Positions 6,708 to 50,194 of a stretch of DNA of 64,000 nucleotides are shown here, piece by piece. Source of the stretch: Gammaproteobacteria bacterium (lineage in GTDB: Bacteria > Pseudomonadota > Gammaproteobacteria > S012-40). The position numbers and the translations under genes were made by a program. Position 1 is the first letter of the stretch. Every line of letters starts with the position of its first letter. The notes under the pieces are model-generated. The model was given only the letters and a program-made list of their open reading frames with translations. It ran no database searches and had not been told where the DNA came from. The stretch spans positions 51,942 through 115,941 of the forward strand of contig WFPC01000015.1 of NCBI GenBank assembly GCA_015487785.1, written 5' to 3'.

Positions 6708-6740
6708 AAAATAGGTTGAACGGAGGAGCGTGGACGACAC

Positions 6741-7202: not shown

Positions 7203-7223
7203 TCGGCGAGAGCGGGGCCGCCC

Positions 7224-8582
7224 ATGGATATCACTTTTCTCGGCGGCACCGAAACCGTCACCGGTTCCAAGTTCCTGCTGCACAGCGGCGATACCCGGGT
7301 GCTGGTGGACTGTGGTCTTTTTCAGGGGTTCAAGTGGTTGCGCCGGCGCAACTGGCAGCCTTTGCCGCTGGATATCCACGATCTCGATGCGGTAGTGCTC
7401 ACCCATGCCCACATCGACCATTCGGGCTATCTGCCGGCACTCTATGAACAGGGTTATCGTGGTCCGGTGTATACCCACCATGCCAGCAAGGCGTTGTGTG
7501 CCATTCTGTTGCCGGACAGCGGTCATCTGCAGGAGGAAGATGCTCGCTACTATGCCCGTCATCACCTGAGCAAGCACGCCCATCCACGTCCCTTGTACGA
7601 TCGAACCACCGCCGAGCGTTGCCTGGAGTTGTTCCAGGGCGTGGATTTTGGTGAGCGCTTCCAGGTGGGTGAGATAGATTTCCATCTGCAACATGCGGGG
7701 CATATCCTGGGGGCTGGCAGCGTGATCGCCGAGCTGGAGGGCAGGCGCGTGGGGTTTTCCGGCGACGTGGGCAGGCCCCACGATATTTTGATGAAACCCC
7801 CCAAGCCTCTGCCCGAGCTGGACCTGTTGCTGTTGGAGTCCACTTATGGCAATCGGTTGCATGAACACGACGATCCCTTCGAGCAACTGACCAGAGTGGT
7901 CAATGATTGTCTGAGGCGGGGCGGGGTGTTGCTGATTCCCAGTTTTGCCGTGGGCCGCGCCCAGACCCTGCAGTACATGTTGACGGAATTGATGGCCAGT
8001 GGGCGTATCCCCCACTTGCCAATGTATCTCGACAGCCCCATGGCCATCGGCGTGTCCGACATCTATTGTCGTTACAACGACCTGCACCGCCTGGATCGGC
8101 GACAATGCCACGCCCTGTGTGAATCCACCACCTATGTTCGCAGCGTGGAGGAATCCAAGGCCCTGGCGGAGCAGAACTACCCGCATATCATCATCGCGGG
8201 CAGCGGCATGGCCACCGGCGGGCGTATTCTGCATCATTTCAAGCGCCTGTTGCCGGACAAGCGCACCACGGTGTTGTTCACCGGTTTCCAGGTGGGCGGC
8301 ACCCGTGGCGCCAAGATGCTGGCGGGGGCCGACAGTGTCAAGATCCATGGGCAGTGGATTCCGGTGAAGGCGAGACTGGAAATGATCACCGGCCTGTCCG
8401 GGCATGGCGATTACCGCGACATCCAGCAATGGCTGGAGCGCAGCCGTTTGCATCGCCACACGCCCATTCAGTTGATCCATGGCGAACCCGAGGCGCTGGA
8501 AGCCATGCGTGACCATCTGCGTCGCCACACCGCCTTCGAAGTGGATGTGGCCGGCTATCGCAACATTCTTCGTTTGCCCTGA
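7224..8582 (+). CDS. MBL-fold metallo-hydrolase with beta-CASP / RNA-specificity domain (RNase J / CPSF-like)
   Basis: 452 aa. The HxHxDH motif (THAHIDHSGYLP) and downstream D/H motifs typical of the beta-CASP ribonuclease family. Confidence 0.8.
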   Translation: MDITFLGGTETVTGSKFLLHSGDTRVLVDCGLFQGFKWLRRRNWQPLPLDIHDLDAVVLTHAHIDHSGYLPALYEQGYRGPVYTHHASKALCAILLPDSGHLQEEDARYYARHHLSKHAHPRPLYDRTTAERCLELFQGVDFGERFQVGEIDFHLQHAGHILGAGSVIAELEGRRVGFSGDVGRPHDILMKPPKPLPELDLLLLESTYGNRLHEHDDPFEQLTRVVNDCLRRGGVLLIPSFAVGRAQTLQYMLTELMASGRIPHLPMYLDSPMAIGVSDIYCRYNDLHRLDRRQCHALCESTTYVRSVEESKALAEQNYPHIIIAGSGMATGGRILHHFKRLLPDKRTTVLFTGFQVGGTRGAKMLAGADSVKIHGQWIPVKARLEMITGLSGHGDYRDIQQWLERSRLHRHTPIQLIHGEPEALEAMRDHLRRHTAFEVDVAGYRNILRLP

Positions 8583-21539: not shown

Positions 21540-23255
21540 TCAGCCCAGCAGGAAAAACAGCAGCACCAGATTGGTGATGAACAAGACGATGGCCAGGCTG
21601 CGCCAGAAGGCGGTGGGATTCCTTTCCAGCAGGGAGGCTTCTTGTTTTTTTACCAGCTCGGGGTTGGGGTGGGTGAGATCTTGCAGGAATTCCGACAACA
21701 CCTTGTAGCGGCGTTCGGGATTCAGGCGCACGGCTTTTTCCAGCGCGGCATCAACCCAGGCGGGAATCTCAGGGTTGATGTGATTGATGGGGCGATAGCG
21801 TACCCGCTTGAGATTGCGCGCCGACAGCGGGCCTCCATAGGGTAGCTTGCCGCACAGCATCTCATAGGTGATGACGCCGATGGAATAGATGTCGGACAGG
21901 TGTGTGCCGGGGTAGCCAAGAAAGTATTCCGGCGCGGAATAGTCCAAGGTGCCCAGCAGGGCGCCGCGTTCGATGGGAGCGGCGATCTCCTGCATGCCGG
22001 CGATCTTGGTGGAACCGAAGTCGATGATCTTGAGGGTGCCGTGCTCGTCGAGCATGATGTTTTCCGGCTTCAGGTCCTGATGCACCATTTCCTGGCGCAA
22101 CAGGGCGCGTACGCCCTTGATGAGTTGCCCGACGATCTCGCGCGCTTCTGCCAGCGGGGGGTTGGGATGGTCGTTCATCCATTGGCGCAGTGACTGTCCC
22201 TCGATGTATTCGGTAAGATAGTAGAGAAAACGTCGTGGACGCGGTGGTTCGATCACTTTGAGCACATGGGGGCTGTTGATGCGTCGTCCGGCCCATTCCT
22301 CGTGCAGGAAACCATCGATGTATTGGGGATCATCCTCGAAGTTCACCGAGGGTGTTTTCATGGCCCATTTCTGCCCGGATGCCGTGTCCAGCACCAGGTA
22401 GACCTGGGTACGCTTGCTGGCATGGATTTCCCGGATCACCTTGTAGCCGTCGATAATCTGGCCGGCCTGCAGCGGTGGCGGGAAGGGCAGCTCGGTAAGC
22501 TGTCGATAGAACTCTTCCTCGTTTTGATTGGGTAGGGATTCTATTTCACATACTTGGCAGGTCACATTGTCGTGGCTGCCATTGGCCAGGGCCTGCTTGA
22601 CGATCTGGCGTGCGGCGCGGTCGGGATTGTCGCGGTACTTCTGTACCAGGGCGATCATATCCTTGGCATGCAGGTATTCATATACCCCGTCGGTGGCGAG
22701 AATGAAAATATCGCCCACCTCCAGCGGCAGGTTGCGATAGTCGATGTCGATGTTGAGATCGGCCCCCATGGCGCGGGCGAGGAAGGCCTTGCTTTCCGAG
22801 GCCCAGGTGGTGTGGTCGCGGGTAAGCCGTTCCAGTTCATTGCCGCGCAGGCGATAGATGCGTGAATCGCCCACGTGGAAGATGTGCGCGGTGGTGGATT
22901 TGAGCACCAGCACACTGAGGGTGGTGAGCATGCCTTGGCCGGTATAGTTGATACGGGCGCTTTCGCCATAGAGCCAGCGATTGAGGGCGCCGAGGATGCG
23001 CTGGCCGGAGGTTTTTACCGTCCAGGACTCCGGAGTACTGTAATAATCCAGCATAAAACCTTTGACGCAGGCCTCGCTGGCCTGGCGGCCGGCAGCGCTG
23101 CTGCTGACGCCGTCCGCCACCATGAGGGTTATGCCCTTGGTGGTGAGCAGAGGTTCTTCCGGAACCTTGATGCCGCAACAATCCTGGTTTTCGGACTTGA
23201 TGCCCTTCTCGCTCAGTTGGCCGGCGCGTATGGCCAGGCTGGAGGTAGTGCCCAT
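21540..23255 (-). CDS. Bifunctional PP2C-family phosphatase / Ser-Thr protein kinase with C-terminal transmembrane anchor
   Basis: N-terminal PP2C motifs (SENQDCCG, MVADGVSS, HVGDSRIY, TRDHT, ATDG, GSHDNVT). Central Hanks kinase (KTPSVNFEDD..., HQDLKPENIML, DFGSTK, APEY). C-terminal TM helix WRSLAIVLFITNLVLLFFLLG. 5 nt downstream of narK. Confidence 0.85.
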   Translation of the reverse strand: MGTTSSLAIRAGQLSEKGIKSENQDCCGIKVPEEPLLTTKGITLMVADGVSSSAAGRQASEACVKGFMLDYYSTPESWTVKTSGQRILGALNRWLYGESARINYTGQGMLTTLSVLVLKSTTAHIFHVGDSRIYRLRGNELERLTRDHTTWASESKAFLARAMGADLNIDIDYRNLPLEVGDIFILATDGVYEYLHAKDMIALVQKYRDNPDRAARQIVKQALANGSHDNVTCQVCEIESLPNQNEEEFYRQLTELPFPPPLQAGQIIDGYKVIREIHASKRTQVYLVLDTASGQKWAMKTPSVNFEDDPQYIDGFLHEEWAGRRINSPHVLKVIEPPRPRRFLYYLTEYIEGQSLRQWMNDHPNPPLAEAREIVGQLIKGVRALLRQEMVHQDLKPENIMLDEHGTLKIIDFGSTKIAGMQEIAAPIERGALLGTLDYSAPEYFLGYPGTHLSDIYSIGVITYEMLCGKLPYGGPLSARNLKRVRYRPINHINPEIPAWVDAALEKAVRLNPERRYKVLSEFLQDLTHPNPELVKKQEASLLERNPTAFWRSLAIVLFITNLVLLFFLLG

Positions 23256-23259
23256 GGGT

Positions 23260-24729
23260 TCAGTGTACGTCGATCATTTGCACGGTGCCATCGGGCAGGG
23301 TTTCCACCATCGCGCCGCGAGGCTCTTCCATGAAGAAATACACCAGCACCAGGGTCAGCACGGCAGCGCCGGCAATGGTCAGGAAGAAGGCCATCGGTGA
23401 TACGAAGGACAACACGGTGAGAAAGACCACTGCGCCCACATTGCCATAGGCGCCGGTCATGCCGGCAATCTGGCCGGTGAGACGACGTTTGATCAGTGGC
23501 ACCATGGCAAACACCGCGCCTTCGCCGGCCTGTACGAAAAAGGAACACAGCATGGTCACGGCCACGGCCAGGAAAAGAGGCCATTGGGCGTCTATCTGGC
23601 TCATGAGAACATAGCCCAGGCTCAGGCAGGCGAGCAGGATCAGCATGGTCTTTCGTCGACCGAATTTGTCGCTGAACAAACCGCCGCTGGGGCGTGAGAC
23701 CAGGTTCATGAAGGCATAGCCAGAGGCCAGCATGCCGGCCATCACAGCCGAGAGTTGGAAAGTGTCCTGGAAGAACAGGGGCAGCATGGACACCACCGCC
23801 AGCTCGGAGCCGAAGGTGACGAAATAGGCCAGGTTGAGAATAGCTACCTGCTTGAAGGAATAACGCTCGATTTCCGGCACGGGTTTCTCGAACACGTGCT
23901 TGTTGATGCGGTGTATGTGGAACAGCTGATAGAGAAAGATGAGTGCCAGGCTGCCATAGAGAGTGATGACCACGGCCTCTCCGAGCATCTCCAGGTTGCC
24001 GGGGCCCAGCTTCCAGGTGAGGATGGCCAGGGCACCGTACAGGGGCAGGTTCATGATGACGTAGAGAATGAAATCTCCCTTGCTGGTGACTTCCATGGCG
24101 CCGGTCTTCTTGGGTTTGAAATAGGTAGAGCCCTTGGGGGTGTTGCGGGCGGAAAAATAGAACACGAAGGAATATACCAGGGCGATGGCTCCCGTGGTGG
24201 CGATGGCGTAGCGCCAGCCGTTTTCGCCGCCGTAGAGCATGGCCAGGGTGGGCAGGGTCAGGGCCGCAGCGGCGGAGCCGAAATTGCCCCAGCCGCCATA
24301 GATACCCTCGGCCAGGCCCACCTCCCTGGCCGGAAACCACTCGGCAATCAGACGGATACCCACCACGAAACCAGCACCCACGAAGCCCAGCAGGAAGCGC
24401 AACAGGGCAAGTTGTTCATAGTCGTCGGCAAGGGCGAAGCCAAAACAGATCACGCTGGAAATGGAGAGCAGGGCGGCAAACATGATACGCGGACCCAGCT
24501 TGTCCACCAGCATGCCGACGATGATGCGCGCGGGGATGGTGAGAGCGACATTGAGAATGAGCAAGGCCTTGACCTCTTGATCGGTTAGGCCGAAGGTCTC
24601 GCGAATGGCTCCCAGCAGGGGAGCATGGTTGAACCACACGAAAAAACAGAGGAAGAAGGCCAGCCAAGACAAGTGCAGAATCCTGGTCTTGCCGGAAAAG
24701 GAAAGCAGCTTGAGTTTTGCGTCGGTCAT
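23260..24729 (-). CDS. narK: Nitrate/nitrite transporter, MFS NNP family (NarK/NasA-type)
   Basis: 489 aa, 12-TM MFS. Nitrate signature-like GGWGNFG and GAYGNVGA motifs. Confidence 0.9.
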
Positions 24730-25110: not shown

Positions 25111-27549
25111 ATGCGAGAGAAACTAGTCCTGATCGGAAATGGTATGGCCGGGGTGCGCACCATCGAAGAACTGTTGAAGATAGCGCCCGAGAAGTACGAC
25201 ATCACCATTTTTGGCGCTGAACCCTATGGTAACTACAACCGCATCCTGTTGTCGCCGGTGCTGGCCGGTGAAAAGACCATAGAAGAAATCATGCTCAATG
25301 ACGAGCAGTGGTATCGCGACAACGGTATTCGCCTGCACAAGGGCAAGAAGGTGATCAAGATCGATCGCCGCCAGCGCAAGGTGATCGCCGAGGACGGCAC
25401 CGAGGAATCCTATGATCGCCTGTTGCTGGCCACCGGCTCCAACCCGTTCATTATCCCCGTGCCAGGCAACGACCTGGAGGGCGTGATCACCTTCCGTGAC
25501 ATCCATGATGTGGACCGCATGTTGGAGGCCACAAGGAAACACAAACACGCGGTGGTCATCGGCGGTGGCCTGTTGGGGCTGGAAGCGGCCAATGGGCTGA
25601 TGCAGCACGGCATGCATGTCACCGTGGTGCATATCACCGACACCTTGATGGAGCGCCAGTTGGACAAGGAGGCCGGTGCTCTGCTGCAGAAATCCCTGGA
25701 AGAACGCGGCATGAATTTTCTCATGTCCCATGTCACCGAGGCAATTCTCGGGGAGGAGCGTGTCAAGGGCGTGCGCTTCGCCAACGGCCTGGAGATTGCC
25801 GCCGACATCGTGGTAATGGCGGTGGGCATTCGGCCCAATATGGAACTGGCTCTCAATGCCGGCATCTATTGCGAGCGTGGCGTGGTGGTCAACGACACCA
25901 TGCAGACCTATGATCCGCGCATCTACGCCGTTGGTGAATGCGTGCAACATCGCGGGGTCACCTATGGACTGGTGGCGCCTCTGTTCGAACAAGCCAAGGT
26001 GGCGGCCAATCATCTGGCCGAATACGGCATTGGCCGTTACGAGGGCTCGGTAACGTCCACCAAGCTTAAGGTGACCGGTATCGACCTGTTCTCCGCCGGC
26101 GATTTCATCGGTGACGAGACCACCGAAGAAATCGTGATGAAGGATGCCGCCCGCGGTGTCTACAAGAAAGTGGTGCTCAAGGACAATCGCGTGGTCGGCG
26201 CGGTGATGTATGGCGATACCGTGGATGGTGCCTGGTATTTCCAATTGTTGCGTGACAAGACCGATGTCAGCGATATCCGCGACCATCTGATGTTGGGGCA
26301 GGCCCACCTGGGTGACGCGGGCCATGGCGGGCAGAATGCCGCCGCGGCCATGAGTGACGACATGGAGGTTTGTGGCTGTAACGGAGTTTGCAAGGGCGAT
26401 ATCGTCAAGGCCATTACCGAAAAGAAACTGTTTACCCTGGACGATGTGCGCGCACACACCAAGGCATCGGCCTCGTGTGGTTCCTGTACTGGTCTGGTGG
26501 AGCAGATTCTGGCTTCCACCCTGGGCGGGGATTACTCCGCCGCTCCCCATGCCAAGCCCCTGTGCAAATGTACCGACTACACCCATGATGAGGTGCGCGC
26601 CGCCATCAAGGAGCAAAAACTCACCTCCATCCGTGCGGTGCAGAAATTCCTCGAATGGAAAACCCCCGACGGTTGTCATGTCTGCCGCCCGGCGCTCAAT
26701 TACTATGTGATCGCCGCCTGGCCGGCGGAGGCCAAGGACGACCCACAGTCCCGCTTTATCAACGAGCGCGCGCATGCCAACATCCAGAAAGATGGCACTT
26801 ACTCGGTGGTGCCACGTATGTGGGGAGGGCTCACTTCACCCAAGGAATTGCGCGCCATCGCCGATGTGGTGGAGAAGTTCAATATTCCCACGGTGAAAGT
26901 CACCGGTGGCCAGCGCATCGATCTTCTGGGTGTACGCAAGGAAGACTTGCCAGCGGTCTGGAAAGACCTCAACGATGCAGGCATGGTTTCCGGTCACGCC
27001 TATGGCAAGTCCTTGCGCACGGTAAAGACGTGTGTGGGTCAGGAATGGTGCCGTTTTGGAACCCAGTTCTCCATGTCCATGGGGGTGAAGCTGGAGCAGA
27101 TCACCTGGGGTTCATGGATGCCGCACAAGTTCAAGATGGCGGTATCCGGTTGTCCACGCAACTGTGCTGAGGCGACCATCAAGGACTTTGGTGTGGTGGC
27201 GGTGGAATCCGGCTGGGAACTGCATGTGGGTGGCAATGGCGGCGTGAAGGTGCGCGCCACCGACCTGTTGTGCAAGGTGGCTACCGAGGAAGAGGTGATC
27301 GATCACTGCCTGGCATTCATTCAGCTCTATCGCGAAGAGGCTCATTATCTGGAACGCACCGCGCCCTGGATCGAGCGCGTGGGCCTGAGCTATGTCAAGC
27401 AGCAAATCGTGGAAAATGAAGAGCGCCGCAAGCAATTGCGCGATGCCTTCCTCGAGTCGCAGAAATACATGCAGAAGGATCCCTGGAAGGAGCGCGCCAG
27501 TGAGGGCGTGGAGAAACATGAGTTCGTACCAATCAAGCAGGTGAGTTGA
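25111..27549 (+). CDS. nirB: NAD(P)H-dependent nitrite reductase large subunit
   Basis: 812 aa. N-terminal FAD/NAD Rossmann (LVLIGNGMAG, VVIGGGLLGLE), BFD-like 2Fe-2S region (CGCNGVC...CGSC), C-terminal siroheme/4Fe-4S sulfite-reductase-like domain. Confidence 0.95.
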   Translation: MREKLVLIGNGMAGVRTIEELLKIAPEKYDITIFGAEPYGNYNRILLSPVLAGEKTIEEIMLNDEQWYRDNGIRLHKGKKVIKIDRRQRKVIAEDGTEESYDRLLLATGSNPFIIPVPGNDLEGVITFRDIHDVDRMLEATRKHKHAVVIGGGLLGLEAANGLMQHGMHVTVVHITDTLMERQLDKEAGALLQKSLEERGMNFLMSHVTEAILGEERVKGVRFANGLEIAADIVVMAVGIRPNMELALNAGIYCERGVVVNDTMQTYDPRIYAVGECVQHRGVTYGLVAPLFEQAKVAANHLAEYGIGRYEGSVTSTKLKVTGIDLFSAGDFIGDETTEEIVMKDAARGVYKKVVLKDNRVVGAVMYGDTVDGAWYFQLLRDKTDVSDIRDHLMLGQAHLGDAGHGGQNAAAAMSDDMEVCGCNGVCKGDIVKAITEKKLFTLDDVRAHTKASASCGSCTGLVEQILASTLGGDYSAAPHAKPLCKCTDYTHDEVRAAIKEQKLTSIRAVQKFLEWKTPDGCHVCRPALNYYVIAAWPAEAKDDPQSRFINERAHANIQKDGTYSVVPRMWGGLTSPKELRAIADVVEKFNIPTVKVTGGQRIDLLGVRKEDLPAVWKDLNDAGMVSGHAYGKSLRTVKTCVGQEWCRFGTQFSMSMGVKLEQITWGSWMPHKFKMAVSGCPRNCAEATIKDFGVVAVESGWELHVGGNGGVKVRATDLLCKVATEEEVIDHCLAFIQLYREEAHYLERTAPWIERVGLSYVKQQIVENEERRKQLRDAFLESQKYMQKDPWKERASEGVEKHEFVPIKQVS

Positions 27550-27550
27550 A

Positions 27551-27859
27551 ATGGCAGAGTGGATTGAAGTAGGCCCGCTGGACGAGATTCCCCGTCTAGG
27601 GGCGCGGGTGATCAAGGGCGATGAAGGCAATATTGCCATATTCCGTACTTCCAGCGATGAGGTTTTCGCCCTTGCAGACCGATGTCCGCACAAGGGTGGC
27701 CCCCTGTCCCAGGGTATCGTGCATGGTAACAGCGTGACTTGTCCCCTGCACAACTGGGTCATTGGTTTCGAGGATGGTGAAGCCAGGGCCCCGGACGAGG
27801 GTTGTACAGCCACCTATCCGGTGAAGGTCGAGAACGAGGTTGTTTTCATCCAACTCTGA
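27551..27859 (+). CDS. nirD: Nitrite reductase small subunit (Rieske-like)
   Basis: 102 aa. CPHKGGPLSQG...CPLHNW Rieske-type motif pair. Confidence 0.9.
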   Translation: MAEWIEVGPLDEIPRLGARVIKGDEGNIAIFRTSSDEVFALADRCPHKGGPLSQGIVHGNSVTCPLHNWVIGFEDGEARAPDEGCTATYPVKVENEVVFIQL

Positions 27860-27883: not shown

Positions 27884-30076
27884 ATGCTATTTGGACGCAA
27901 AGACAGAAAACCCATCAAACTTCCCGGCAAGGACCCGGAGGTGAAGGAATGGCGCTATACCACCTGTGGCTATTGTTCCACCGGTTGTTCCATTGAGGTG
28001 GGTGTCAACGAGCAGGGCGAGGGTGTGCGCGCCCGTGGTGTGGGGGGTGCCCATGTCAATCGGGGAAAATTATGCCTGAAAGGGATCTTCGAGCACGAAT
28101 TGTTCAGCTCCGCTGGGCGCGGTACCACACCCCTGATGCGCGACAAGACCTTCGAGGATTTTCGCCAGGTTTCCTGGGATCAGGCCTTGGATCGTACCGC
28201 GGCCGAAATCAAGCGTATCCAAGAGACCTATGGGCGTGACAGTTTCGCCATCGTCTCTACCGGCCAGATTCTCACCGAGGAATTCTATACCTTGGGCAAG
28301 CTGGCCCGTGGTGTGATCGGTACCAACAACTACGATGGCAACACGACCTTGTGCATGGCCTCGGCGGTGTCCGGCTACAAGCGTTCCTTTGGCTCCGATG
28401 GCCCACCCGGTTGTTACGACGATTTCGAACACACCGAATGCCTGCTGGCCATTGGTTCCAACCTGCCAGAGCAGCATCCGATCATTTTCTGGCGCCTACG
28501 TCAGGCGTTAGAGAAGCGCAAGTTTCCCGTCATCGTGGTGGATCCGCGGGTAACCATGTTTGCCCAGATGGCCGATATGCATCTGCCCATCACGCCGGGA
28601 ACCGATGTGGTGTTGCTCAACAGCCTGGCCCACGTAATCCTGGACGAGGGCCTGGAGGACCGGGCCTATATCGAGGCCCACACCAGTGGTTTCGACGAGT
28701 TCGCCCAATTGGTGGCGCAATACGATCCGGTGAGCGCCTCGCGTATCTGTGGCATCGACGAGGACACCATTCGCAACGTGGCCCGGCTCTATGCCAAGGC
28801 CGGGGCGGCCATGACCATCTGGACCATGGGTATCAACCAGAGTACCCATGGCTCCGATGGCGTGGTGGGTATCAACAACCTCAATCTCATCACCGGCAAT
28901 ATCGGCAAACCCGGTGGTACCTCGCTGTCCATCACCGGACAGTGTAACGCCATGGGTACCCGCGAGTGGTCGTCGTGTTCGGGGCTGCCCGGTTATCGTT
29001 TGCTGGAGAACGAGCAGCATCGCAAGGAAATCGCCGAGTTCTGGGGTATCGACCCGGAGTTCTTCCCCAAGAAACGCGGCCTGTTCCAGACCGATATTTT
29101 CCCTGCCATCGAAACCGGCCAGATCAAGGGACTGTGGCTGGTGGCCACCAATCCCATGACGTCCATGCCCAATACGGCACGTATTCGCAAGACCCTGGAG
29201 AAACTGGAGTTCCTGGTGGTGCAGGATGCCTACCAGGACGTGGAGACCACCGAATACGCCCACGTTTACCTGCCGGCGGCCATCTGGGCGGAAAAAGAAG
29301 GTGTCATGACCAATACCGAGCGGCGGGTCAACTACATCAGCAATGTGGTGAAACCCTATGCCGATTCCAAGCCGGATCTGTGGATCTTCAACCAGATGGC
29401 CCAGCGTTTCGAGCAGGGGCGCAAGATCCGCTTTCCGGAAACCGCCCGCGAGGTGTTCGACGAAATGCGCCAGTTGTCCAAGGGGCGCCTGCTGGACATC
29501 TCCGGCATGACCCACGAAAAGATCCAGCAGAATCGCGGCATCCAGTGGCCTATGCCGGAAGGCGCCGAGAGTGGCTCGCCACGGCTGTATACCGATGGCA
29601 AGTTCCAACATCCCGATGGTCGCGCCAAACTGATTCCTCTGCCGTTCGTAGACAACAACGAGCGACCCGACGAGGAGTATCCTTTCTGGCTCAACAGTGG
29701 CCGGGTGGTGGAGCATTTTCACACTCGTACCCGTACCGGCAAGATCGGCAACCTCAACAAGTTCAGCCCTACCCCCTACATGGAGATGAATCCGGATGCG
29801 GCGCAGGAGCTGGGTATCGAGCACATGAGTTATGTGCGCCTGGTCTCGCGCCGGGGCGATGCCGTGGTGTTGGTACAACTGACCCATCGGGTACCGCACA
29901 ACATGGTCTTTATTCCCTTTCATTTCCATGAATGCGTCAATCGCCTCACCCTGGGATTGCTCGATCCCTATTCCCGGCAACCGGCGTTCAAACAGAGCGC
30001 GGTGCGAATCGAGCCCCTGACTGAGGAAGAGAAAGACATGGCGGCACAGATCAATCGCGCCGCCCGCGCCTATTGA
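27884..30076 (+). CDS. nasC: Assimilatory nitrate reductase catalytic subunit, short NarB-like form (molybdopterin oxidoreductase)
   Basis: 730 aa. N-terminal CGYCSTGC-x..-C 4Fe-4S motif and a Mo-bisMGD fold. There is no twin-arginine signal, so the enzyme is cytoplasmic. There is no C-terminal 2Fe-2S/NifU-like extension. Confidence 0.9.
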   Translation: MLFGRKDRKPIKLPGKDPEVKEWRYTTCGYCSTGCSIEVGVNEQGEGVRARGVGGAHVNRGKLCLKGIFEHELFSSAGRGTTPLMRDKTFEDFRQVSWDQALDRTAAEIKRIQETYGRDSFAIVSTGQILTEEFYTLGKLARGVIGTNNYDGNTTLCMASAVSGYKRSFGSDGPPGCYDDFEHTECLLAIGSNLPEQHPIIFWRLRQALEKRKFPVIVVDPRVTMFAQMADMHLPITPGTDVVLLNSLAHVILDEGLEDRAYIEAHTSGFDEFAQLVAQYDPVSASRICGIDEDTIRNVARLYAKAGAAMTIWTMGINQSTHGSDGVVGINNLNLITGNIGKPGGTSLSITGQCNAMGTREWSSCSGLPGYRLLENEQHRKEIAEFWGIDPEFFPKKRGLFQTDIFPAIETGQIKGLWLVATNPMTSMPNTARIRKTLEKLEFLVVQDAYQDVETTEYAHVYLPAAIWAEKEGVMTNTERRVNYISNVVKPYADSKPDLWIFNQMAQRFEQGRKIRFPETAREVFDEMRQLSKGRLLDISGMTHEKIQQNRGIQWPMPEGAESGSPRLYTDGKFQHPDGRAKLIPLPFVDNNERPDEEYPFWLNSGRVVEHFHTRTRTGKIGNLNKFSPTPYMEMNPDAAQELGIEHMSYVRLVSRRGDAVVLVQLTHRVPHNMVFIPFHFHECVNRLTLGLLDPYSRQPAFKQSAVRIEPLTEEEKDMAAQINRAARAY

Positions 30077-30093
30077 GGGAGTGAGAGAAACGC

Positions 30094-32055
30094 ATGTACG
30101 AAATACGTAAAGACGAACCGGACTATGCCTTCATTCCCGATGTGGATACCCCGCCCACCAACCAGTGGGGGGATCCCATCGAAACCGTGCCGGAAAATGA
30201 TGCAGTGGTCGGACAGCCGCTGGAGATCAATGGCGAACCGGTGGTGGGCACTAATCCCAACCGCTACAAGCAACACGGTTTTCATTTCACCGCCGACAAC
30301 TGTATCGGCTGTCATGCCTGTGAGGCGGCGTGCAGTGAGAAGAACAATCTGCCGCCGCACCTGAGCTTTCGTTCGGTGGGTTTTCTGGAGGGCGGCAGCT
30401 ACCCGGCCTATAAGCGCTTGAATATTTCCATGGCCTGCAACCATTGCGACAACCCTGTCTGCCTCAAGGGGTGTCCCACCCGGGCCTATACCAAGTATCC
30501 CGAGTACGGCGCGGTGATTCAGGATCCGGATACCTGTTTCGGATGTGGTTACTGCACCTGGGTCTGCCCCTACAATGCGCCGCAACTGGATCCGGTGGAA
30601 GGCCAGGTATCCAAGTGCAACATGTGCATCGACCGTCTGGAGGTGGGGCTCAAGCCCGCCTGTGCGGCGGCTTGCCTGGGAGGGGCGCTGGATTTTGGCC
30701 TGATCGAGACCACGCCCCCCAACCGGGAACAGGCCAAGATCAAGATTCCCGGTTTTCCCGATCCCAGCATCACCCATCCCAATATCCGTTTTCAGCAGGT
30801 CAAGACCCTGCCACGGGACATGACCCGGGCCGACACCATGCCCTTGCACTACATGAACGATGAGCAGGGGCGCGGTGAGGAATACAAACCCAAACCGTTG
30901 GTGAAGGAGCGCAAGAAGGAGTGGAACTGGCGGGATCTCAGTTCCCGAGAAAATCCCCTGGTGGTGTTCACCCTCATTTCCCAGGCGGTTGTGGGCGGTT
31001 TCCTGGCGCTTTTCCTCGGACCCTTGCTGGGTCTGGAGGAACTCTCCCGTGAGGCTCATCCGGTGGCTTATGCCGCGGCCTTGTTGCTGATGTTGGGCCT
31101 GCAGGGCATTGCCCTGGTGGTGTCCACCATGCACTTGGGCAAGCCGCATCGCTTCTACCGCGCGTTCAACAATCTCAAGTATTCCCCGGTGAGCCGGGAG
31201 GTGGCCTCCCTGGCGGTGTTCTTCACCTTCTTTGCGCTCTACACCGTGCTCAATACCGGTTTGTTCAATTGGCTGCCGGAGTGGTTGCTGGGCGGGCTGA
31301 GCTTTATCATCGGCCTGGCGGCGGCATTCTCGGGCCTGGTCTTCATCTATGCCATGCACAAGATCTATCGTATCCCGGCAAGACCTTTCTGGAATCACTG
31401 GCAAGTGTTGACCAGTTTCTATGGCAACATGCTCAGCCTGGGAGGGCTGTTGGCGGGGCTGGTGTTCGCCACCGCCCTGGTGTTGCAGGGTGAATCCTTC
31501 GCCGGGCTCATGGGGATGCTGGCTTTGCCCATGCTGCTGGGTCTGGCCATGGAGGCCTATGGCCTCTATCGCCATGGCAAGGACATGGATGCACGGGGCG
31601 GCGAGGGCGCCGCGGCACATCTGCGCCAGCAGACCCATTTTGGATATACCGCGCGCGTGCGTCACATCGGCCTGGGGCTGGGCATGCTCCTGGTGGCCGT
31701 GCTGGGGTTCGCCGGGGCTGATGGCTGGCTGGGGTTGGCGGGCTGGCTGCTGACGGCCCTGGTGATGATTGCCACGGCGGTGATCGGTCGCGCTCTGTTC
31801 TATGTGCTGGTGATCCCCACCACCATGCCGGGCGCCTTCTTCTGGCGCAATCCGGGCTTCCAGGAACATGCCCGGGAGACGGGTCTGGCACGCATGCCCC
31901 AGGTGGGGGTGGTGCCCAAGACCGATTATCACCACGAGCATCTGGCGCGTGCCAAACGCGAACTCAAGGAAGAGTGGGAGGAAATCCGCCGTATCGGTTA
32001 CAAGGCCGCGTTCAAGCGGGCCTGGCAGTTCGCCATCACCCGCCTGGATTATTGA
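30094..32055 (+). CDS. Fusion protein: DmsB-like 4x[4Fe-4S] ferredoxin domain + DmsC-like 8-TM membrane anchor
   Basis: Four Cys clusters (CIGCHACEAAC; CNHCDNPVCLKGCP; CFGCGYCTWVCP; CNMCIDRLEVGLKPACAAAC) in residues about 70-200. Then about 8 predicted TM helices (residues about 290-600). No signal peptide. Confidence 0.75.
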   Translation: MYEIRKDEPDYAFIPDVDTPPTNQWGDPIETVPENDAVVGQPLEINGEPVVGTNPNRYKQHGFHFTADNCIGCHACEAACSEKNNLPPHLSFRSVGFLEGGSYPAYKRLNISMACNHCDNPVCLKGCPTRAYTKYPEYGAVIQDPDTCFGCGYCTWVCPYNAPQLDPVEGQVSKCNMCIDRLEVGLKPACAAACLGGALDFGLIETTPPNREQAKIKIPGFPDPSITHPNIRFQQVKTLPRDMTRADTMPLHYMNDEQGRGEEYKPKPLVKERKKEWNWRDLSSRENPLVVFTLISQAVVGGFLALFLGPLLGLEELSREAHPVAYAAALLLMLGLQGIALVVSTMHLGKPHRFYRAFNNLKYSPVSREVASLAVFFTFFALYTVLNTGLFNWLPEWLLGGLSFIIGLAAAFSGLVFIYAMHKIYRIPARPFWNHWQVLTSFYGNMLSLGGLLAGLVFATALVLQGESFAGLMGMLALPMLLGLAMEAYGLYRHGKDMDARGGEGAAAHLRQQTHFGYTARVRHIGLGLGMLLVAVLGFAGADGWLGLAGWLLTALVMIATAVIGRALFYVLVIPTTMPGAFFWRNPGFQEHARETGLARMPQVGVVPKTDYHHEHLARAKRELKEEWEEIRRIGYKAAFKRAWQFAITRLDY

Positions 32056-32069: not shown

Positions 32070-32095
32070 ATGGGGCCATGTTAGGATGGCCCCAT
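32070..32095 (+). terminator. Stem-loop downstream of the DmsBC-like gene (weak terminator; overlaps CPBP start)
   Basis: atggggccat-gttagg-atggccccat. A T-stretch cttttct follows about 9 nt later. Confidence 0.35.
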
Positions 32096-32519
32096 GAGGA
32101 CGGCTTTTCTGCGCGATCCTGTTTTCTGGCTGGCCATGGGTGCCGGTCCCCTGGGCTGGTTGCTGTTGCGCGAACTGGGCCATGTGCGGCCAGCCACGGA
32201 CTGGGCTGGCTTGGTCCTGGTGGTGGTGACCCATCCGCTGCTCGAGGAGCTGGCGTTTCGTGGCTGGTTGCAGGGCCGGTTGTTGACAAATGCTTCGGGC
32301 CGGACTCGCCGCTATGGTATTTCCCGGGCCAATTTCCTTACCAGCCTGGCCTTTGTCATCTTTCACCTGATCAGCCAGATGTCCCTGTGGGCCCTGCTGT
32401 TGTTGTTTCCTTCGCTGATCTTCGGTTACCTGCGCGAACGCCACCAGAGCGTACTCTCGGCTGTGGTGCTGCACATGTTTTATAACGCGGGGCTCTACGG
32501 TTTTTTGCCCTCGGCTTGA
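32094..32519 (+). CDS. CPBP-family intramembrane glutamic endopeptidase (CAAX-protease/Abi-like), short form
   Basis: 141 aa. EELAFRGW (EExxxR), FVIFHL (FxxxH), VVLHMFYN (HxxxN) motifs on TM helices. Confidence 0.7.
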   Translation: MRTAFLRDPVFWLAMGAGPLGWLLLRELGHVRPATDWAGLVLVVVTHPLLEELAFRGWLQGRLLTNASGRTRRYGISRANFLTSLAFVIFHLISQMSLWALLLLFPSLIFGYLRERHQSVLSAVVLHMFYNAGLYGFLPSA

Positions 32520-33324: not shown

Positions 33325-33400
33325 TGGCTCCCCGAGCCGGACTCGAACCAGCGACCCAGTGGTTAACAGCCACTTGCTCTACCAACTGAGCTATCGGGGA
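33325..33400 (-). tRNA. tRNA-Asn (GTT)
   Basis: Reverse complement TCCCCGATAGCTCAGTTGGTAGAGCAAGTGGCTGTTAACCACTGGGTCGCTGGTTCGAGTCCGGCTCGGGGAGCCA. 7-bp acceptor stem, anticodon loop CTGTTAA, encoded CCA. Confidence 0.93.
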
Positions 33401-45925: not shown

Positions 45926-48900
45926 TTACGGTGGCCCGCCGGACAGGTTCAGGGTCAGGGTGACGCCAGCGGTGAACAGCTCACGGCTGAGATCGTCACG
46001 CAGCAGATAGGCCAGGCTCAGCAGGGCATCGCTGCTGTCCGCGTCGCTGATGTAGAGCAGGGCGGTGCCCTCGCCCGGTTCGAGGCTGCCGTCGCTGAGA
46101 TAGGCCGGATCGGTTACCGATTCCAGGGCGGCCTGGCTGTCGGACGCTTGGAAGGCCAGCACACTCAGCGGGCGGTTGGAGAAATTGGCGATGATCAGGC
46201 CGAAGCGGCTGCCGGCCTTGAGCTGACCATCGGCGATCAATGGGTCGGCCAGGGCCCAGCGGCCGATGATGTTGCCCAGCGATTCGGTGGCGTAGACCGA
46301 CAAGGTGTTGACCACCAGCGAATCGCGAATTCGTGCGCGCACGGTGACGATGCCACTGTAGCTGGAGCGCAAGCGGAATGTCGCCTGGCCGTCGAGCGTG
46401 GTCACCTGGGTGGCGCTGAGAACGGCCTCGCCGGCGATGATTTCCAGCTCCACCACGCTGCCATCGAGAATGGGGGTGGAGGGGTCGGCGGCGCGGGTGT
46501 AGATGCGGATCAATGTTTCCTCTATGCCGTTATTGAGGATTACATTGGGGCTGGCGGCCATGACCAGGGCTACCGGCGCCCTGGGGTCGGCGCTGATTAC
46601 CAGGGCCTGGCTGGCCTCCACGCCATCGAAGCGCGCCCGCACCGTGATGGTGCCCGGGGCCACCGTGGTCAGCCGGCCGGAGCCATCCACGGTATTGTCG
46701 ATACTGGCCAGATTCTGGCCACCATCATCGAGGCTCCATGTGGCGGCTCGGGTGATGTCCTGGGCGCTGCCATCGGCAAACCGGGCAATGGCGGTGAGCG
46801 GCAGGGTAACGCCATAGGGCAGGCTGTCCAGCGCGGGCTGGATCTCGATGCTCTGCAAGGGGGCATCGGTAAGGCTCAGGTAACTGCTGGCCACTATCTC
46901 ACCCAGGCTGGCGTCGATGCGCACCGGATTGGCGGCGGCGGCCAGGGCACTGACCTGGCCCTGTTCACCCTCACCATTGGCCACGACGGCCAGTGCCTCG
47001 TCGGCGGAAACCCACAGGACCTGTTCGGTGAGATCCTGGCTGCTGCCATCGGAGAACTGGCCTCGGGCACGCAGGCCCAGGCGGGTGCCTGGGGCGAGCA
47101 CGGCGCTGGCAGGCTCGATGCTCAATTGCTGCAGGGTGGCATCGCTGATCTCCACCACATAGGTACTGGTCACGCCGGTCAGCGAGGCGGTGATGTTGAC
47201 CGTGCCGGCTTGTAGGGCGGTGAGCCTGCCAGTGGCATCGATTACCGCCAGGGCATCATCGGAAGAAGACCAGTCCACCTGTCCGGTGGCCAGTTGCTGG
47301 CTGCCGTCGGTGTAATTGGCCAGGGCCCGCAGGCGGGTAGCGGTACCGGCGGCAAGCCGGTCGGTGTCGCCCTCGATATTGAGTGAAATCAATCGGGCCG
47401 GTGTCACCTCGATGGTAGTGGAAGCGCTGATGCCAGCAAAGCTTACCGTCAACTGGGTCTGACCCTCGTTCTGGGCGCGCAGATTCTGCAACGAGCGGCT
47501 GCTGCCGGCCGTCACCACAATGGTGTCATCGGCCAGGCTCCAGGCAACCTGGGTGCTCAGATCCTGTTTGACGTTGTTGGAGTAGATACCGGTCACCGCG
47601 ATGGCGAACTGGCTGCCCTTGGCCACGGCAGGGTTGTTTGGCGTGATTTCTAGCGCCACCAGTTGTTCCTGCCCGATGGTGAGTTCGATGCTGTCACTCA
47701 GCCCGGCGGTGGCCGCTGTGACGCGCACCGTGCCCGCTCCCACGGCAGTGGCCAGGCCGGCCTGGCCCAGACCATTGTCGATGTCCAGCACGGCGGGATT
47801 GTCGCTACTCCAGTTGGCCTCGTTGCTGAGATCGCGGCTGCTGCCGTCGCTGTAGATGCCCATCACGCGCAGTTGCTGGCTGTTGCCATTGACCCAGGGC
47901 AGCAGGGGGGGCTGGATTTCCAGGCGCTGGAGGACCGCTTGGCTGATCTCCAGTACGGCCTCGGCGTTGTAACCCCGGTAACTGGCACTGAGAATGCCAC
48001 TGCCCGCCTGCAGCGCAAACAGCAGGCCCGGGGCATCGCCGGCCGTGTTGATCTGGGCCAGGCGGGTGTCGCCCAGACGCCACAGGGCCTCGGCGGTGAG
48101 ATCCTGGCGACTGCCGTCGGTATACACCCCCAGCAGACGCAATTGCTGTTGATCACCGGCGGCCAGACGTAATAGGGGTGGCTCGATCAAGACCCGCGCC
48201 AGGGTGACCGGCGGCGGATCCAGGACGATGCTGGCGCTGATACCGTCCAGCGTGGCGCTGAGGGTGACCTCTTGTCCTTCACTGGGTCGTGTAACCCACA
48301 CACCTCGAGGGTCGAGAATGATTTCCACCTGTGCGGAAGAACTCTGCCAGCGCACTTGCCGGGTGATATCGCTGCGGCTGGCGTCGCTGAAGATACCGGT
48401 GGCGGTAATGGGAATCAGGTCGGATTCGTCGTCGAGACCTTGTGCCGGCAATGTGATCTCGATGTCCTGGAGGCTGGCCGCCGTTACCTCGATGGCGAGC
48501 GTGGCTTCCAGTTCATCCAGGCGGGCCACGACTTGGGCAGTGCCTGTGGCCAAGGCCTGCAACAGGCCGGCATTCTCGCCAGTGGGCACGATCTCCAGCA
48601 CGTTGGTATCGCCGGACGACCAAATCACCGTGTCGCTGAGATCACGCTTGCTGTCGTCGGAATAGATGCCGATGGCACGCACCACCTGTTGTGTGCCAGC
48701 GGGCATTTGCCGGCTGTCGATTTCCACCGTCAGAGCGGTCAGGCGTGCCTCGCTCACCCGGAAGTCCAGGCGGCTCTCGATGCCGTCCAGGCTGGCGCGC
48801 ACGCTGGCCTGACCGCTGGCGCGGGCGCTCAACAGGCCCGGCTGACGGACGTTGTCGATGGCGATGATGTCGGGGTCGGAGGAAATCCAGCTCACCCGCG

Positions 48901-50194
48901 CAGTGATGTCGCTGCGCGAGCCGTCGGAATAGACGCCGGTGGCGCTCAGGCGCAGGGTGTCGCCTGTAGGCAGGACCAGGGTTTCGCTGGAGAGCAGAAT
49001 CTCGTTCAATATCGCTGGTGTCACGCTCACCGGCAGACGGTCATAGAGGCCATCGAACAAGGCAACCACCTCGGTGCTGCCGGGGGCTATGGCCTGTAGT
49101 TGGCCGCTGTTGGCGTCTACGGCCACCACGTCGCTGTTCTTGCTGGTCCAGACTACATCGCGGGTGATGTCCTGCACGCTACCATCACTGAAGTGGCCCA
49201 GGGCTTTGAGAGCGAGTGCCATGCCGGCAGCGAGTTCACTGCGCTCGGCCACGATGTCGATGGACTCGATCCGGGCTGCGCTGATTTCCAGCGAGAGCGT
49301 GTCGCTGATCCCGTCGACCGCGGCTTGCACGCTCACCGTGCCCGGCTGACGCGCATACAGCCAGGTTCGCCCGTCTTCGATCTCGATGCTGGCCGAGGCA
49401 GGCGGGTTCACGCTCCAGCTTGCCTGGCTGCTGAGATCCACCTGCCTGCCATTGTCATACGTGCCGGTGAGCACGATGGGGCTGCGAGTGCCACTGGCGA
49501 TGCGCTCTTCGTCCAGGGAAAGCGTGAGTCGGCTCAAGGTGTTCGCTACGATTTCGATGGGCACGCTGACACTCAGGCCCGGGTCACCGGTATAGCGGGC
49601 CACCAGCTCACCGCTGCCGGGCTGACGGGCTTGCAAGGTATTGTCCGGAGCCAGGTCGGCCAGGCCTTCCGGTTCGATACGCCAGTCTATCTGTTGTTCC
49701 AGGGCTTGCTTGCTGCCATCACTGAAAATGCCGACGGCATTCAGCCGGGTCTGATTTCCCTGGGCCAGGTTGATGACCACTGGGCTGATCTGGAGTTGCT
49801 CCAGGCTGGCATCGGTCACCTGGACCAGGGCATCGGCCTGGATCACACCCAGAGCGACGCCGATGCGGCCTTCTCCGGGCTCGACCGCACGGAACTGGCC
49901 GGGTTTTGTCAGCGGCTGGATTATTCCGTTGTCGGGCAGGATCCACTGCACCTCATGGGAAATATCACGCCGGCTGTCGTCCTGATAGATGCCGGTGGCG
50001 GTCAACTGGAAATGGGTGCCCTTGGCCACCTTGCCGAGTTTGGGCTTGAGCTGGATCTTCAGCAACAAGGGCGAAGTAGCGCTGGTGCCCAGGGGAGCAT
50101 TCATGCGCTCGCAACCCGTCAGCACCAGCACCATCAACGCGATGAGCAGGCCTATTCTGAACAGGGGCGTTAGCGGCAGGTATGGCATGGACAA
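45926..50194 (-). CDS. Giant surface lipoprotein with about 13 tandem bacterial Ig-like (Big_2) domains
   Basis: 1422 aa. Lipoprotein signal LMVLVLTGC. Repeating approx. 85-90-aa units with the core pattern L.ATG.YSDGS..D.T..V.W.SSD. C-terminal approx. 250 aa non-repetitive. Confidence 0.8.
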   Translation of the reverse strand: MSMPYLPLTPLFRIGLLIALMVLVLTGCERMNAPLGTSATSPLLLKIQLKPKLGKVAKGTHFQLTATGIYQDDSRRDISHEVQWILPDNGIIQPLTKPGQFRAVEPGEGRIGVALGVIQADALVQVTDASLEQLQISPVVINLAQGNQTRLNAVGIFSDGSKQALEQQIDWRIEPEGLADLAPDNTLQARQPGSGELVARYTGDPGLSVSVPIEIVANTLSRLTLSLDEERIASGTRSPIVLTGTYDNGRQVDLSSQASWSVNPPASASIEIEDGRTWLYARQPGTVSVQAAVDGISDTLSLEISAARIESIDIVAERSELAAGMALALKALGHFSDGSVQDITRDVVWTSKNSDVVAVDANSGQLQAIAPGSTEVVALFDGLYDRLPVSVTPAILNEILLSSETLVLPTGDTLRLSATGVYSDGSRSDITARVSWISSDPDIIAIDNVRQPGLLSARASGQASVRASLDGIESRLDFRVSEARLTALTVEIDSRQMPAGTQQVVRAIGIYSDDSKRDLSDTVIWSSGDTNVLEIVPTGENAGLLQALATGTAQVVARLDELEATLAIEVTAASLQDIEITLPAQGLDDESDLIPITATGIFSDASRSDITRQVRWQSSSAQVEIILDPRGVWVTRPSEGQEVTLSATLDGISASIVLDPPPVTLARVLIEPPLLRLAAGDQQQLRLLGVYTDGSRQDLTAEALWRLGDTRLAQINTAGDAPGLLFALQAGSGILSASYRGYNAEAVLEISQAVLQRLEIQPPLLPWVNGNSQQLRVMGIYSDGSSRDLSNEANWSSDNPAVLDIDNGLGQAGLATAVGAGTVRVTAATAGLSDSIELTIGQEQLVALEITPNNPAVAKGSQFAIAVTGIYSNNVKQDLSTQVAWSLADDTIVVTAGSSRSLQNLRAQNEGQTQLTVSFAGISASTTIEVTPARLISLNIEGDTDRLAAGTATRLRALANYTDGSQQLATGQVDWSSSDDALAVIDATGRLTALQAGTVNITASLTGVTSTYVVEISDATLQQLSIEPASAVLAPGTRLGLRARGQFSDGSSQDLTEQVLWVSADEALAVVANGEGEQGQVSALAAAANPVRIDASLGEIVASSYLSLTDAPLQSIEIQPALDSLPYGVTLPLTAIARFADGSAQDITRAATWSLDDGGQNLASIDNTVDGSGRLTTVAPGTITVRARFDGVEASQALVISADPRAPVALVMAASPNVILNNGIEETLIRIYTRAADPSTPILDGSVVELEIIAGEAVLSATQVTTLDGQATFRLRSSYSGIVTVRARIRDSLVVNTLSVYATESLGNIIGRWALADPLIADGQLKAGSRFGLIIANFSNRPLSVLAFQASDSQAALESVTDPAYLSDGSLEPGEGTALLYISDADSSDALLSLAYLLRDDLSRELFTAGVTLTLNLSGGPP

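Follow-up and report, generated by a model that had tools for sequence, protein, structure and literature searches.

This analysis concerns two adjacent genes in a stretch of gammaproteobacterial DNA (contig WFPC01000015.1, positions 51,942 to 115,941), whose full length of 64,000 nucleotides (nt) is referred to below as the window. The first gene encodes a short protein of the nitrate reductase type, and the second encodes a fusion of a DmsB-like iron-sulfur (FeS) domain and a DmsC-like membrane anchor. Judged from the sequences, the pair is probably a two-subunit, membrane-bound, cytoplasm-facing quinol:nitrate oxidoreductase, which would feed nitrite to the nitrite reductase NirBD for nitrogen assimilation. 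The broader claim is that the pair represents an unrecognised and widespread third class of bacterial assimilatory nitrate reductase, in which a subunit of the Nas/Nap/Fdh clade has recruited an inverted, fused DmsB-DmsC (SoeBC-like) module. The chance that this claim is both true and undescribed is put at slightly less than even. A search confined to the open-access literature found no description of the arrangement of a short reductase with a DmsB-DmsC fusion.

The textbook electron donors of bacterial assimilatory nitrate reductases are ferredoxin or flavodoxin, or reduced nicotinamide adenine dinucleotide (phosphate), NAD(P)H, acting through a flavoprotein; the diflavin NasN is a newer addition. 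The two genes considered here, with their predicted functional elements, are listed by window position.

27884..30076, + strand: gene of the predicted catalytic subunit, a short nitrate reductase of 730 amino acids (aa), ATG start
27965..28075, + strand: FS0 [4Fe-4S] motif, C28, C31, C35 and C64, read from the translation and aligned with the FS0 cysteines of NapA and FdhF
28352..28357, + strand: predicted molybdenum ligand Cys157, followed by Met158 (TLCMASAV), from the alignment with NapA, NasA and FdhF
30094..32055, + strand: DmsB-DmsC fusion gene, predicted electron-input subunit of 653 aa, ATG start
30301..30675, + strand: four [4Fe-4S] motifs with 16 cysteines, C70 to C194, from the alignment with Escherichia coli DmsB
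30952..31806, + strand: eight predicted transmembrane (TM) helices, residues 287-571, both termini inside (N-in/C-in), NrfD/PsrC-like fold, from hydropathy, positive-inside statistics and an AlphaFold2 (AF2) model
31123..31200, + strand: predicted quinol site in cytoplasmic loop L2, S344, H347, S364 and E369, from the alignment with DmsC
31807..32052, + strand: predicted cytoplasmic C-terminal extension, motif PTTMPGAFFWRN..H..MPQVG followed by a basic amphipathic helix, absent from DmsC

Both open reading frames (ORFs) coincide exactly with the coordinates of an earlier note on this DNA, and a Shine-Dalgarno-like GGAG lies 5′ of each gene. The 730-aa protein contains the Pfam domains Molybdop_Fe4S4 (41 bits), Molybdopterin and Molydop_binding and no further domain, which is the three-domain set of a minimal enzyme with a molybdenum-bis(pyranopterin guanine dinucleotide) (Mo-bisPGD) centre. 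Its N-terminus (MLFGRKDRKPIKLPGK...) has neither a twin-arginine motif nor a hydrophobic h-region, and an RR motif occurs in 0 of 63 orthologues. The Pfam scan finds no Fer2_BFD domain in the protein, and in the alignment the C-terminal extension of long NasA (about 170 aa, BFD-like [2Fe-2S]) is missing. The description of the enzyme in the earlier note as a short form without a twin-arginine translocation (Tat) signal and without the C-terminal 2Fe-2S domain is thus borne out by Pfam, by the alignment and by the 63 orthologues. The epithet 'NarB-like', also used there, appears to fit only as regards size and domain content: cyanobacterial NarB is a stand-alone monomer reduced by soluble ferredoxin, whereas the 730-aa protein has a dedicated partner gene in 62 of 62 loci.

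The scores of the 730-aa protein stay below every NCBIfam cutoff: 606 bits against 666 for the formate dehydrogenase alpha subunit (Fdh-alpha), 540 against 1100 for NasC, 488 against 1000 for haloarchaeal NasA (NasA_Halo) and 436 against 904 for NapA. By sequence the subunit is placed inside the Nas/Nap/Fdh clade, yet in no curated NCBIfam subfamily. The nearest solved structures are FdhF of the hydrogen-dependent CO2 reductase (HDCR) and the monomeric NapA of Desulfovibrio desulfuricans, both at E ~1e-135, and the orthologues in related loci are 68-92% identical.

The top matches in NCBIfam and in the Protein Data Bank (PDB) raise the question of the substrate, and the active site was compared in an alignment of the 730-aa protein with E. 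coli NapA, E. coli FdhF and two long NasA proteins from related loci. The FS0 signature CxxCxxxC is found in 62 of 63 reductase orthologues. At the position of TLCMASAV, E. coli NapA has RHCMASAV, long NasA RLCMSSTV and FdhF RVUHGPSV (U-H); the Cys-Met motif is kept in 60 of the 63 orthologues. At the position of FdhF Arg333 the protein has Thr (ITGQ versus VRGQ in FdhF), as Nap and Nas do. Formate dehydrogenases require a Sec/Cys-His pair, with selenocysteine (Sec) or cysteine, together with the Arg. Formate dehydrogenase was rejected as the identity of the enzyme because of these residues and the gene context. A wider form of the same doubt holds that the pair is a formate:quinone oxidoreductase, or a reductase of chlorate, selenate or another oxyanion, and that its nitrogen-assimilation setting is coincidental. 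This is very improbable: the highest NCBIfam score is that of Fdh-alpha, the best solved homologue is FdhF and no equivalog cutoff is reached, and against these stand Cys-Met and Thr exactly as in NapA and NasA, and a linkage to nirBD, narK, nrtABC, nasT and P-II that holds across deep divergence. The active site is best read as nitrate-type, which agrees with the earlier assignment through the Cys-Met pair common to NapA and NasA and the lack of the FdhF Sec/Cys-His and Arg333, and the type of reaction would be settled as far as sequence allows.

The second gene encodes a protein built of two known parts. Pfam finds Fer4_11 at residues 112-202 (82 bits) and DmsC, PF04976, at residues 286-572 (77 bits, cutoff 22), and the best NCBIfam match is DmsB, TIGR02951, with 156 bits, under the cutoff of 214. 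The alignment with E. coli DmsB covers residues 60-230 and holds for each motif, and that with E. coli DmsC covers residues 275-575. The cysteines that would bind the four clusters are C70/73/76/80, C115/118/123/127, C148/151/154/158 and C175/178/190/194; all 16 are invariant in an alignment of 40 homologues, and 81 of 81 genome-derived sequences of the family have the motifs. Nothing hydrophobic precedes residue 287, hence there is no signal peptide; among the orthologues, too, neither the reductase nor the fusion shows a Tat or Sec signal. The earlier reading of this gene as a four-cluster DmsB-like protein fused to an eight-TM DmsC-type anchor without a signal peptide is confirmed by Pfam, the 16 cysteines and hydropathy. 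The TM domain is modelled by AF2 mostly with a predicted local distance difference test (pLDDT) value above 90, and in a Foldseek search of the PDB its best matches are PsrC (2vpw_C, prob 1.0, TMt 0.55) and ActC of alternative complex III (ACIII; 6f0k_C). In addition to the parts shared with DmsB and DmsC, the family has an acidic extension at the N-terminus (about 60 residues), a linker (about 50 residues), and the C-terminal motif with the basic helix. The C-terminal extension has invariant residues between P575 and G605, is net positively charged and is modelled by AF2 as helices at 611-652; it may contact the FeS domain or the quinol site. In databases the fusion is labelled 'DMSO reductase anchor subunit' (dimethyl sulfoxide, DMSO), and NCBIfam holds no model for either the reductase or the fusion.

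The quinol site of DmsC consists of Ser62, His65, Ser82 and Glu87, of which His65 and Glu87 are backed by mutagenesis (Calisto & Pereira, PMC8076601). These four residues align with S344, H347, S364 and E369 of the fusion, all invariant among the 40 homologues, and the L2 loop that bears them is predicted to lie on the FeS-domain side of the membrane. By sequence, the quinol-interacting anchor claimed earlier is upheld. PsrC, the fold match of the membrane domain, binds menaquinone.

The orientation of the anchor was predicted from the distribution of positive charges, measured as lysine plus arginine (K+R) in the membrane-domain loops of 40 sequences of the family. The side of the FeS domain (N-flank, L2, L4, L6 and C-flank) has a mean count of 19.4 (minimum 15, n=40), and the opposite side (L1, L3, L5 and L7) one of 0.25 (maximum 1, n=40). 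This extreme positive-inside bias predicts a cytoplasmic position for the fused FeS domain, for loop L2 with its quinol site and for both termini. In E. coli DmsC the bias is reversed and weaker, the odd loops having 8 K/R and the even loops together with the termini 4. The N- and C-termini of E. coli DmsC and its partner DmsB lie on the periplasmic (P) side of the membrane (PMC8076601), and the charge bias of DmsC agrees with these periplasmic termini and with its periplasmic DmsAB partner. A periplasmic orientation of the fusion, which the earlier note had named as the finding that would count against its proposal, was rejected on the charge bias together with the lack of signal peptides. 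It is a strong sequence-based prediction that the whole module faces the cytoplasm and that its anchor is inverted relative to E. coli DmsC. The anchor would have been flipped as a unit with its FeS partner, so that the quinol site still lies beside the last cluster, now on the cytoplasmic (N) side.

The association of the two genes is the next line of evidence. Within the window they are the final two of a same-strand string that runs nirB, nirD, the 730-aa gene and the 653-aa gene, with gaps of 1, 24 and 17 nt. The genes accompanying the pair are given below.

25111..27549, + strand: nirB, NAD(P)H nitrite reductase large subunit, in the same operon (TIGR02374, 972 bits, above cutoff)
27551..27859, + strand: nirD, small subunit with intact Rieske ligands, NasG-like (TIGR02378, 98.8 bits, above cutoff; CPH...CPLH motif)
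23260..24729, - strand: narK-type nitrate/nitrite transporter of the major facilitator superfamily (MFS), divergently transcribed (TIGR00886, 344 bits, above cutoff)
21540..23255, - strand: fusion of a PP2C phosphatase and a Ser/Thr kinase, divergent and adjoining narK (Pfam PP2C_2 and Pkinase)

In databases the fusion has more than 3,500 homologues, and all of the 120 matches listed share the fusion architecture; a relative is encoded by 400 GTDB species genomes. Gene neighbourhoods were counted in the best 80 loci of the family. The short reductase, 68-89% identical to the 730-aa protein, lies immediately upstream on the same strand in 62 of the 62 loci with at least 2.4 kb of upstream DNA, mostly at a distance of 3-250 nt, and the genes overlap in locus L089. 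Where related loci have enough room, nirB is found in 39 of 48 and nirD in 38 of 48. The order in betaproteobacteria is reductase, fusion, nasT (an ANTAR antiterminator), nrtABC and, further on, nirB, with the pair kept together. Across the loci the context genes are nirBD, narK, nrtABC, nasT and P-II, in agreement with the assimilation context proposed earlier. The 730-aa enzyme or its counterpart is the sole nitrate reductase of the assimilation cluster in the window, in 22 kb of L085 (on a 701-kb contig) and in 18 kb of L030.

The pairing also extends to distant relatives. A whole-library HMMER search with the membrane domain alone recovers fusions that are 31-47% identical in that domain, and gives 241 relatives at E <= 1e-10 among clusters at 50% identity, some of which are stand-alone DmsC-like proteins. 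Of four diverged fusions that were looked up, three are preceded by a reductase 57-69% identical to the 730-aa protein; the identity of these three fusions is 36-42% when the entire protein is counted and 31-37% for the membrane domain. The fourth, L087, stands on a 1.8-kb contig with no upstream DNA, and its pairing cannot be judged. Neighbours of the diverged loci are P-II, an MFS transporter, the kinase and nirBD. These loci lie at L088 1-3501, L089 1281-5235 and L090 2193-6216, and the L090 reductase gene is split into two calls (541 and 204 aa), perhaps through a frameshift or a mistake in assembly. From these identities, the catalytic subunit is seen to evolve much more slowly than its anchor partner. 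The arrangement is no chance juxtaposition, since the pair is present in every related locus that could be checked. Even between deeply diverged relatives, the reductase and the fusion behave as an obligate unit within clusters for nitrate assimilation, and the proposal that the two genes form a functional pair, for which co-occurrence was the check, has held up in the 62 loci and in three of the four diverged fusions.

An unfused arrangement is found in L092 (1038-2424), where a 164-aa four-cluster ferredoxin stands beside a 309-aa DmsC-like anchor that is 34% identical to the membrane domain of the fusion. As a partner of the short reductase this unfused pair was rejected; it follows a molybdoenzyme unrelated to that reductase. 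It could be the kind of ancestor from which the fusion arose. A tblastn search of the plasmid collection with the fusion gave no record covering at least 80% of the query, the maximum being 61% and most matches covering the DmsB-like part only. Two records of about 4.08 Mb each, Proteus mirabilis NZ_OL790811.1 and NZ_OL790812.1, gave one uninterrupted piece over fusion residues 59-454 at 31% identity, which spans the FeS part and half of the membrane part; the feature table used has no annotation at this place. Fusions of the DmsB-DmsC type may exist in other lineages.

Carriers of the pair belong to Chromatiaceae, Ectothiorhodospiraceae, Thioalkalispiraceae, Acidiferrobacterales, Thiogranum, Sulfuriflexus, Sulfurirhabdus, Methylocaldum and Burkholderiales. 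The fusion family is enriched in sulfur oxidisers and includes a methanotroph, and in L085 dsrC adjoins the pair.

In the proposed mechanism, the quinol (ubiquinol in these gamma- and betaproteobacteria) would bind in the cytoplasmic-side pocket of the DmsC-like domain, at S344, H347, S364 and E369 of loop L2. Two electrons would then travel through the four [4Fe-4S] clusters of the fused DmsB-like domain to FS0 (C28/31/35/64) of the docked 730-aa subunit, and from there to the Mo-bisPGD centre with its Cys157 ligand. At this centre, nitrate imported by NarK would be reduced to nitrite, which NirBD would take to ammonium. From sequence and gene context we infer that the two proteins dock, that quinol is the donor and in which direction the electrons move, as well as the physiological role and its benefit. 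The potentials of the two couples are about +0.1 V for ubiquinone/ubiquinol (UQ/UQH2) and about +0.42 V for nitrate/nitrite, so that nitrate reduction with ubiquinol is strongly exergonic. Because the quinol site and the active site would share the N side, the reaction should be non-electrogenic unless it makes use of NrfD-type ion channels. The benefit would be that, of the eight electrons consumed in nitrate assimilation, two need not come from NAD(P)H or ferredoxin. Such a bypass is attractive for sulfur oxidisers and methanotrophs, because in these organisms NADH is made by reverse electron flow. The taxonomic spread and the dsrC gene of L085 appear to fit this NADH-saving rationale.

Several findings weigh against a quinol-linked assimilatory enzyme. 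The catalytic subunit scores under the NCBIfam cutoffs of NasC and NasA, the FeS domain of the fusion is modelled poorly by AF2 (pLDDT below 50), and the support for the predicted topology extends as far as the positive-inside rule and the absence of signal peptides carry it. Two further findings come from the neighbouring genes, and each of them leads to a different explanation of the pair.

The first of these is NirD, whose Rieske ligands CxH...CxxH are complete in 49 of 49 homologues from the loci. The NirD of E. coli, which is cluster-less, is not known to have the full set of Rieske ligands. The NirD of these loci is probably a true [2Fe-2S] ferredoxin, and it is a possible second electron route to the reductase. 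This leads to a NasBGC-type system, in which electrons of NADH would pass through NirB (flavin adenine dinucleotide, FAD, and Fe-S) and the Rieske protein NirD to the short reductase, and the fusion would be only a tether or an auxiliary or alternative entry. The position of nirB and nirD directly upstream in the same operon agrees with this explanation, and a precedent is known: Paracoccus NasG passes electrons derived from NADH from NasB to NasC, and is said to serve both NasB and NasC (PMC6618116). The same dual role means that an intact Rieske NirD may be expected whatever the donor of the nitrate reductase is. In six betaproteobacterial loci (L022, L028, L030, L031, L058 and L060) the pair persists without an adjacent nirD, and the 16 Fe-S cysteines and four quinol-site residues would be needless for a mere tether, although they are invariant. 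In addition, in operons with a long NasA it is the long enzyme that bears the BFD-type 2Fe-2S domain usually tied to donors of the NirB/NasB type. The NADH-dependent explanation is thus held to be unlikely. The earlier claim of a route distinct from the NADH paradigm is kept for the membrane module and the missing BFD domain; given the adjacent Rieske NirD, an NADH route may exist alongside the quinol one.

The second finding is a long NasA with Fer2_BFD directly downstream of the fusion in 12 of 55 loci, namely L001 (10091-12757), L059 (10211-12943), L004, L005, L006, L010, L011, L015, L019, L039, L053 and L075. These proteins are 888-910 aa long, with the 888- and 910-aa forms in L001 and L059, and are 34-37% identical to the short reductase; none is present in the 64 kb of the window. 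Some operons therefore contain two reductases, which would be redundant or alternative entries (NADH versus quinol), or else the short enzyme has another role. Such a role could be primarily dissimilatory or redox-balancing: the same quinol:nitrate chemistry would act as an uncoupled electron sink that re-oxidises the quinone pool, and together with NirBD would amount to cytoplasmic nitrate ammonification. NirBD serves in both assimilation and fermentative ammonification, and is therefore compatible with this role. Besides the 12 operons that already hold a classical assimilatory NasA beside the pair, it is favoured by the hosts, largely sulfur oxidisers of oxygen-poor habitats, and by NnrS, a nitric oxide (NO)-stress protein, which follows in L001. 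The neighbours, by contrast, are those typical of assimilation (the nasT antiterminator, nrtABC, P-II and narK with the kinase), and in most loci, including the window, the cluster contains no other assimilatory reductase. A mainly redox-balancing function is accordingly given a low probability, and assimilation through quinol-linked nitrate reduction is preferred.

The predicted module can be compared with several known systems. It lacks at least one defining feature of each known family, and hence is not filed under any of them. In architecture it appears closest to SoeABC, with a catalytic subunit from the Nas/Nap/Fdh clade. It would work like SoeABC in reverse, as a homologue of DmsBC in its parts, a Nas enzyme in its chemistry and context, and with a net reaction like that of NarGHI.

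SoeABC of Allochromatium vinosum and Aquifex aeolicus is likewise a three-module complex iron-sulfur molybdoenzyme (CISM) without a Tat signal, whose peripheral subunits are proposed to lie on the N side, and its hosts are sulfur-oxidising bacteria of the same kinds. For the anchor SoeC an inverted position has been proposed, with the His65/Glu87 quinone site facing the N side (PMC8076601), and SoeABC is the only described precedent for such an inversion. In the module considered here, the N-side peripheral subunits, the inverted anchor and the N-side His/Glu site are all features of the prediction. The differences lie in the catalytic subunit and in the fusion. SoeA belongs to another lineage, oxidises sulfite and delivers electrons into the quinone pool, whereas here they are expected to flow out of the pool to nitrate. 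A SoeA-like nature of the 730-aa subunit is unlikely by sequence, its best matches being Fdh, Nas and Nap. SoeB and SoeC are separate proteins, whereas the corresponding parts are fused here and carry N- and C-terminal extensions, a comparison in which SoeBC was taken from its description only.

With E. coli DmsABC the fusion shares homology along its length, to DmsB in the four cluster motifs and to DmsC in the eight TM helices and the quinol residues. In both systems a quinol-oxidising anchor with no cofactor of its own is connected by four [4Fe-4S] clusters to a Mo-bisPGD enzyme. In contrast, DmsAB is exported by Tat and periplasmic, while the module here is predicted to face the cytoplasm with an inverted anchor and with the B and C parts fused. 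The catalytic subunit is also not of the DmsA/YnfE type (TIGR02166, 143 bits against a cutoff of 778), and its predicted substrate is nitrate. PsrABC and ACIII provide the best structural matches of the anchor (2vpw_C and 6f0k_C), with two four-helix bundles and a quinone site beside the Fe-S subunit, and differ in that they face the periplasm, have other catalytic partners and are unfused. The catalogue of NrfD-like complexes (PMC8076601) contains no nitrate reductase and no fused form.

The assimilatory enzymes NarB, Bacillus subtilis NasC and long NasA/NasC resemble the catalytic subunit in being cytoplasmic Mo-bisPGD proteins with FS0, a Cys molybdenum ligand and a nitrate-assimilation context. 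The length of 730 aa matches that of NarB and B. subtilis NasC, about 710-730 aa (PMC7331816). Known donors of Nas enzymes are ferredoxin or flavodoxin (NarB, Azotobacter NasA) or NADH through NasB, NirB or NasG (PMC6618116), and none of these reductases has a dedicated partner with four clusters and a membrane anchor. In the phylogenetic survey of Wells et al. (2020, PMC7331816), no member of the NasA/NasC-AioA-NapA-Fdh clade is tied to canonical four-cluster or membrane-anchor subunits.

NarGHI shares with the predicted module the quinol:nitrate oxidoreductase reaction, a cytoplasmic active site and an Fe-S relay subunit. In some bacteria it can stand in for assimilation. NarG is an enzyme of type II of the DMSO reductase family, and NarI is a di-haem cytochrome b whose oxidation of quinol takes place at the periplasmic face, in an electrogenic redox loop, whereas the anchor here is of the DmsC family and haem-free, with its quinol site predicted at the cytoplasmic face. 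The NarH model TIGR01660 gives 53 bits against a cutoff of 524, and Pfam found no NarI-like domain. The distinction from NarGHI drawn in the earlier note therefore stands.

The tests that could be made on the sequences all came out in favour of the interpretation in the earlier note. At the level of sequence, what is supported as new is a probable assimilatory nitrate reductase with a CISM-type, cytoplasm-facing quinol-input module, which is widespread and at present mis-annotated. If the proposal is true, the clade-wide rule that there are no four-cluster or anchor subunits (PMC7331816) would be wrong, and the pair would be the first case in the Nas/Nap/Aio/Fdh clade that uses them in their canonical form. 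In chemolithoautotrophs and methanotrophs, the quinone pool itself would supply the first two electrons used in nitrate assimilation. With two of the eight electrons spared the lift to NADH by reverse electron flow, the cost of nitrate assimilation would fall for many sulfur oxidisers, for Burkholderiales and for some methanotrophs, and NrfD-type ion channels might even conserve energy. Environmental genes labelled 'DMSO reductase anchor subunit' would be mis-assigned and would belong to the nitrate assimilation machinery. The pair would also be the second natural example, after SoeABC, of a whole CISM module flipped to the cytoplasmic face, and thus a useful system for the study of NrfD/DmsC anchors in either orientation.

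The phosphatase-kinase fusion beside narK recurs in L009, L033, L051, L066, L076, L085 and L090, and more diverged copies are present in betaproteobacterial loci. From this conservation, it is probably an uncharacterised regulator of nitrate uptake or assimilation. Downstream of the pair, a small CPBP/Rce1-like intramembrane protease (32094-32519, + strand) is encoded 38 nt past the fusion; among NCBIfam models it scores best with MrtJ, from the JDVT-CTERM system (103.6 bits, which exceeds the cutoff). The other loci whose downstream genes were inspected do not have this protease at the matching position, L085 having dsrC there and L001 nasA followed by nnrS, and it is probably unrelated to the nitrate reductase module.

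An Rfam scan of the window gave one transfer RNA (tRNA) only and no molybdenum cofactor (Moco) or other riboswitch, and promoter and terminator scans gave counts not above those of shuffled controls. The tRNA gene (33328-33400, - strand, RF00005, 67.9 bits) is flanked by the protease gene and a gene for aspartate aminotransferase. The remaining window is ordinary chromosome, with dnaK, recN, uvrB, lysS, parE/parC and copA. Long ORFs are located at 4143-6740 (854/864 aa, on opposite strands) and 6768-8528 (586 aa), and Pfam gives no match (E <= 1e-8) for the two on the minus strand, of 864 and 586 aa. A 1,422-aa ORF (45926-50194, - strand) carries repeated bacterial Ig-like (Big_2) domains and probably encodes a large surface protein.

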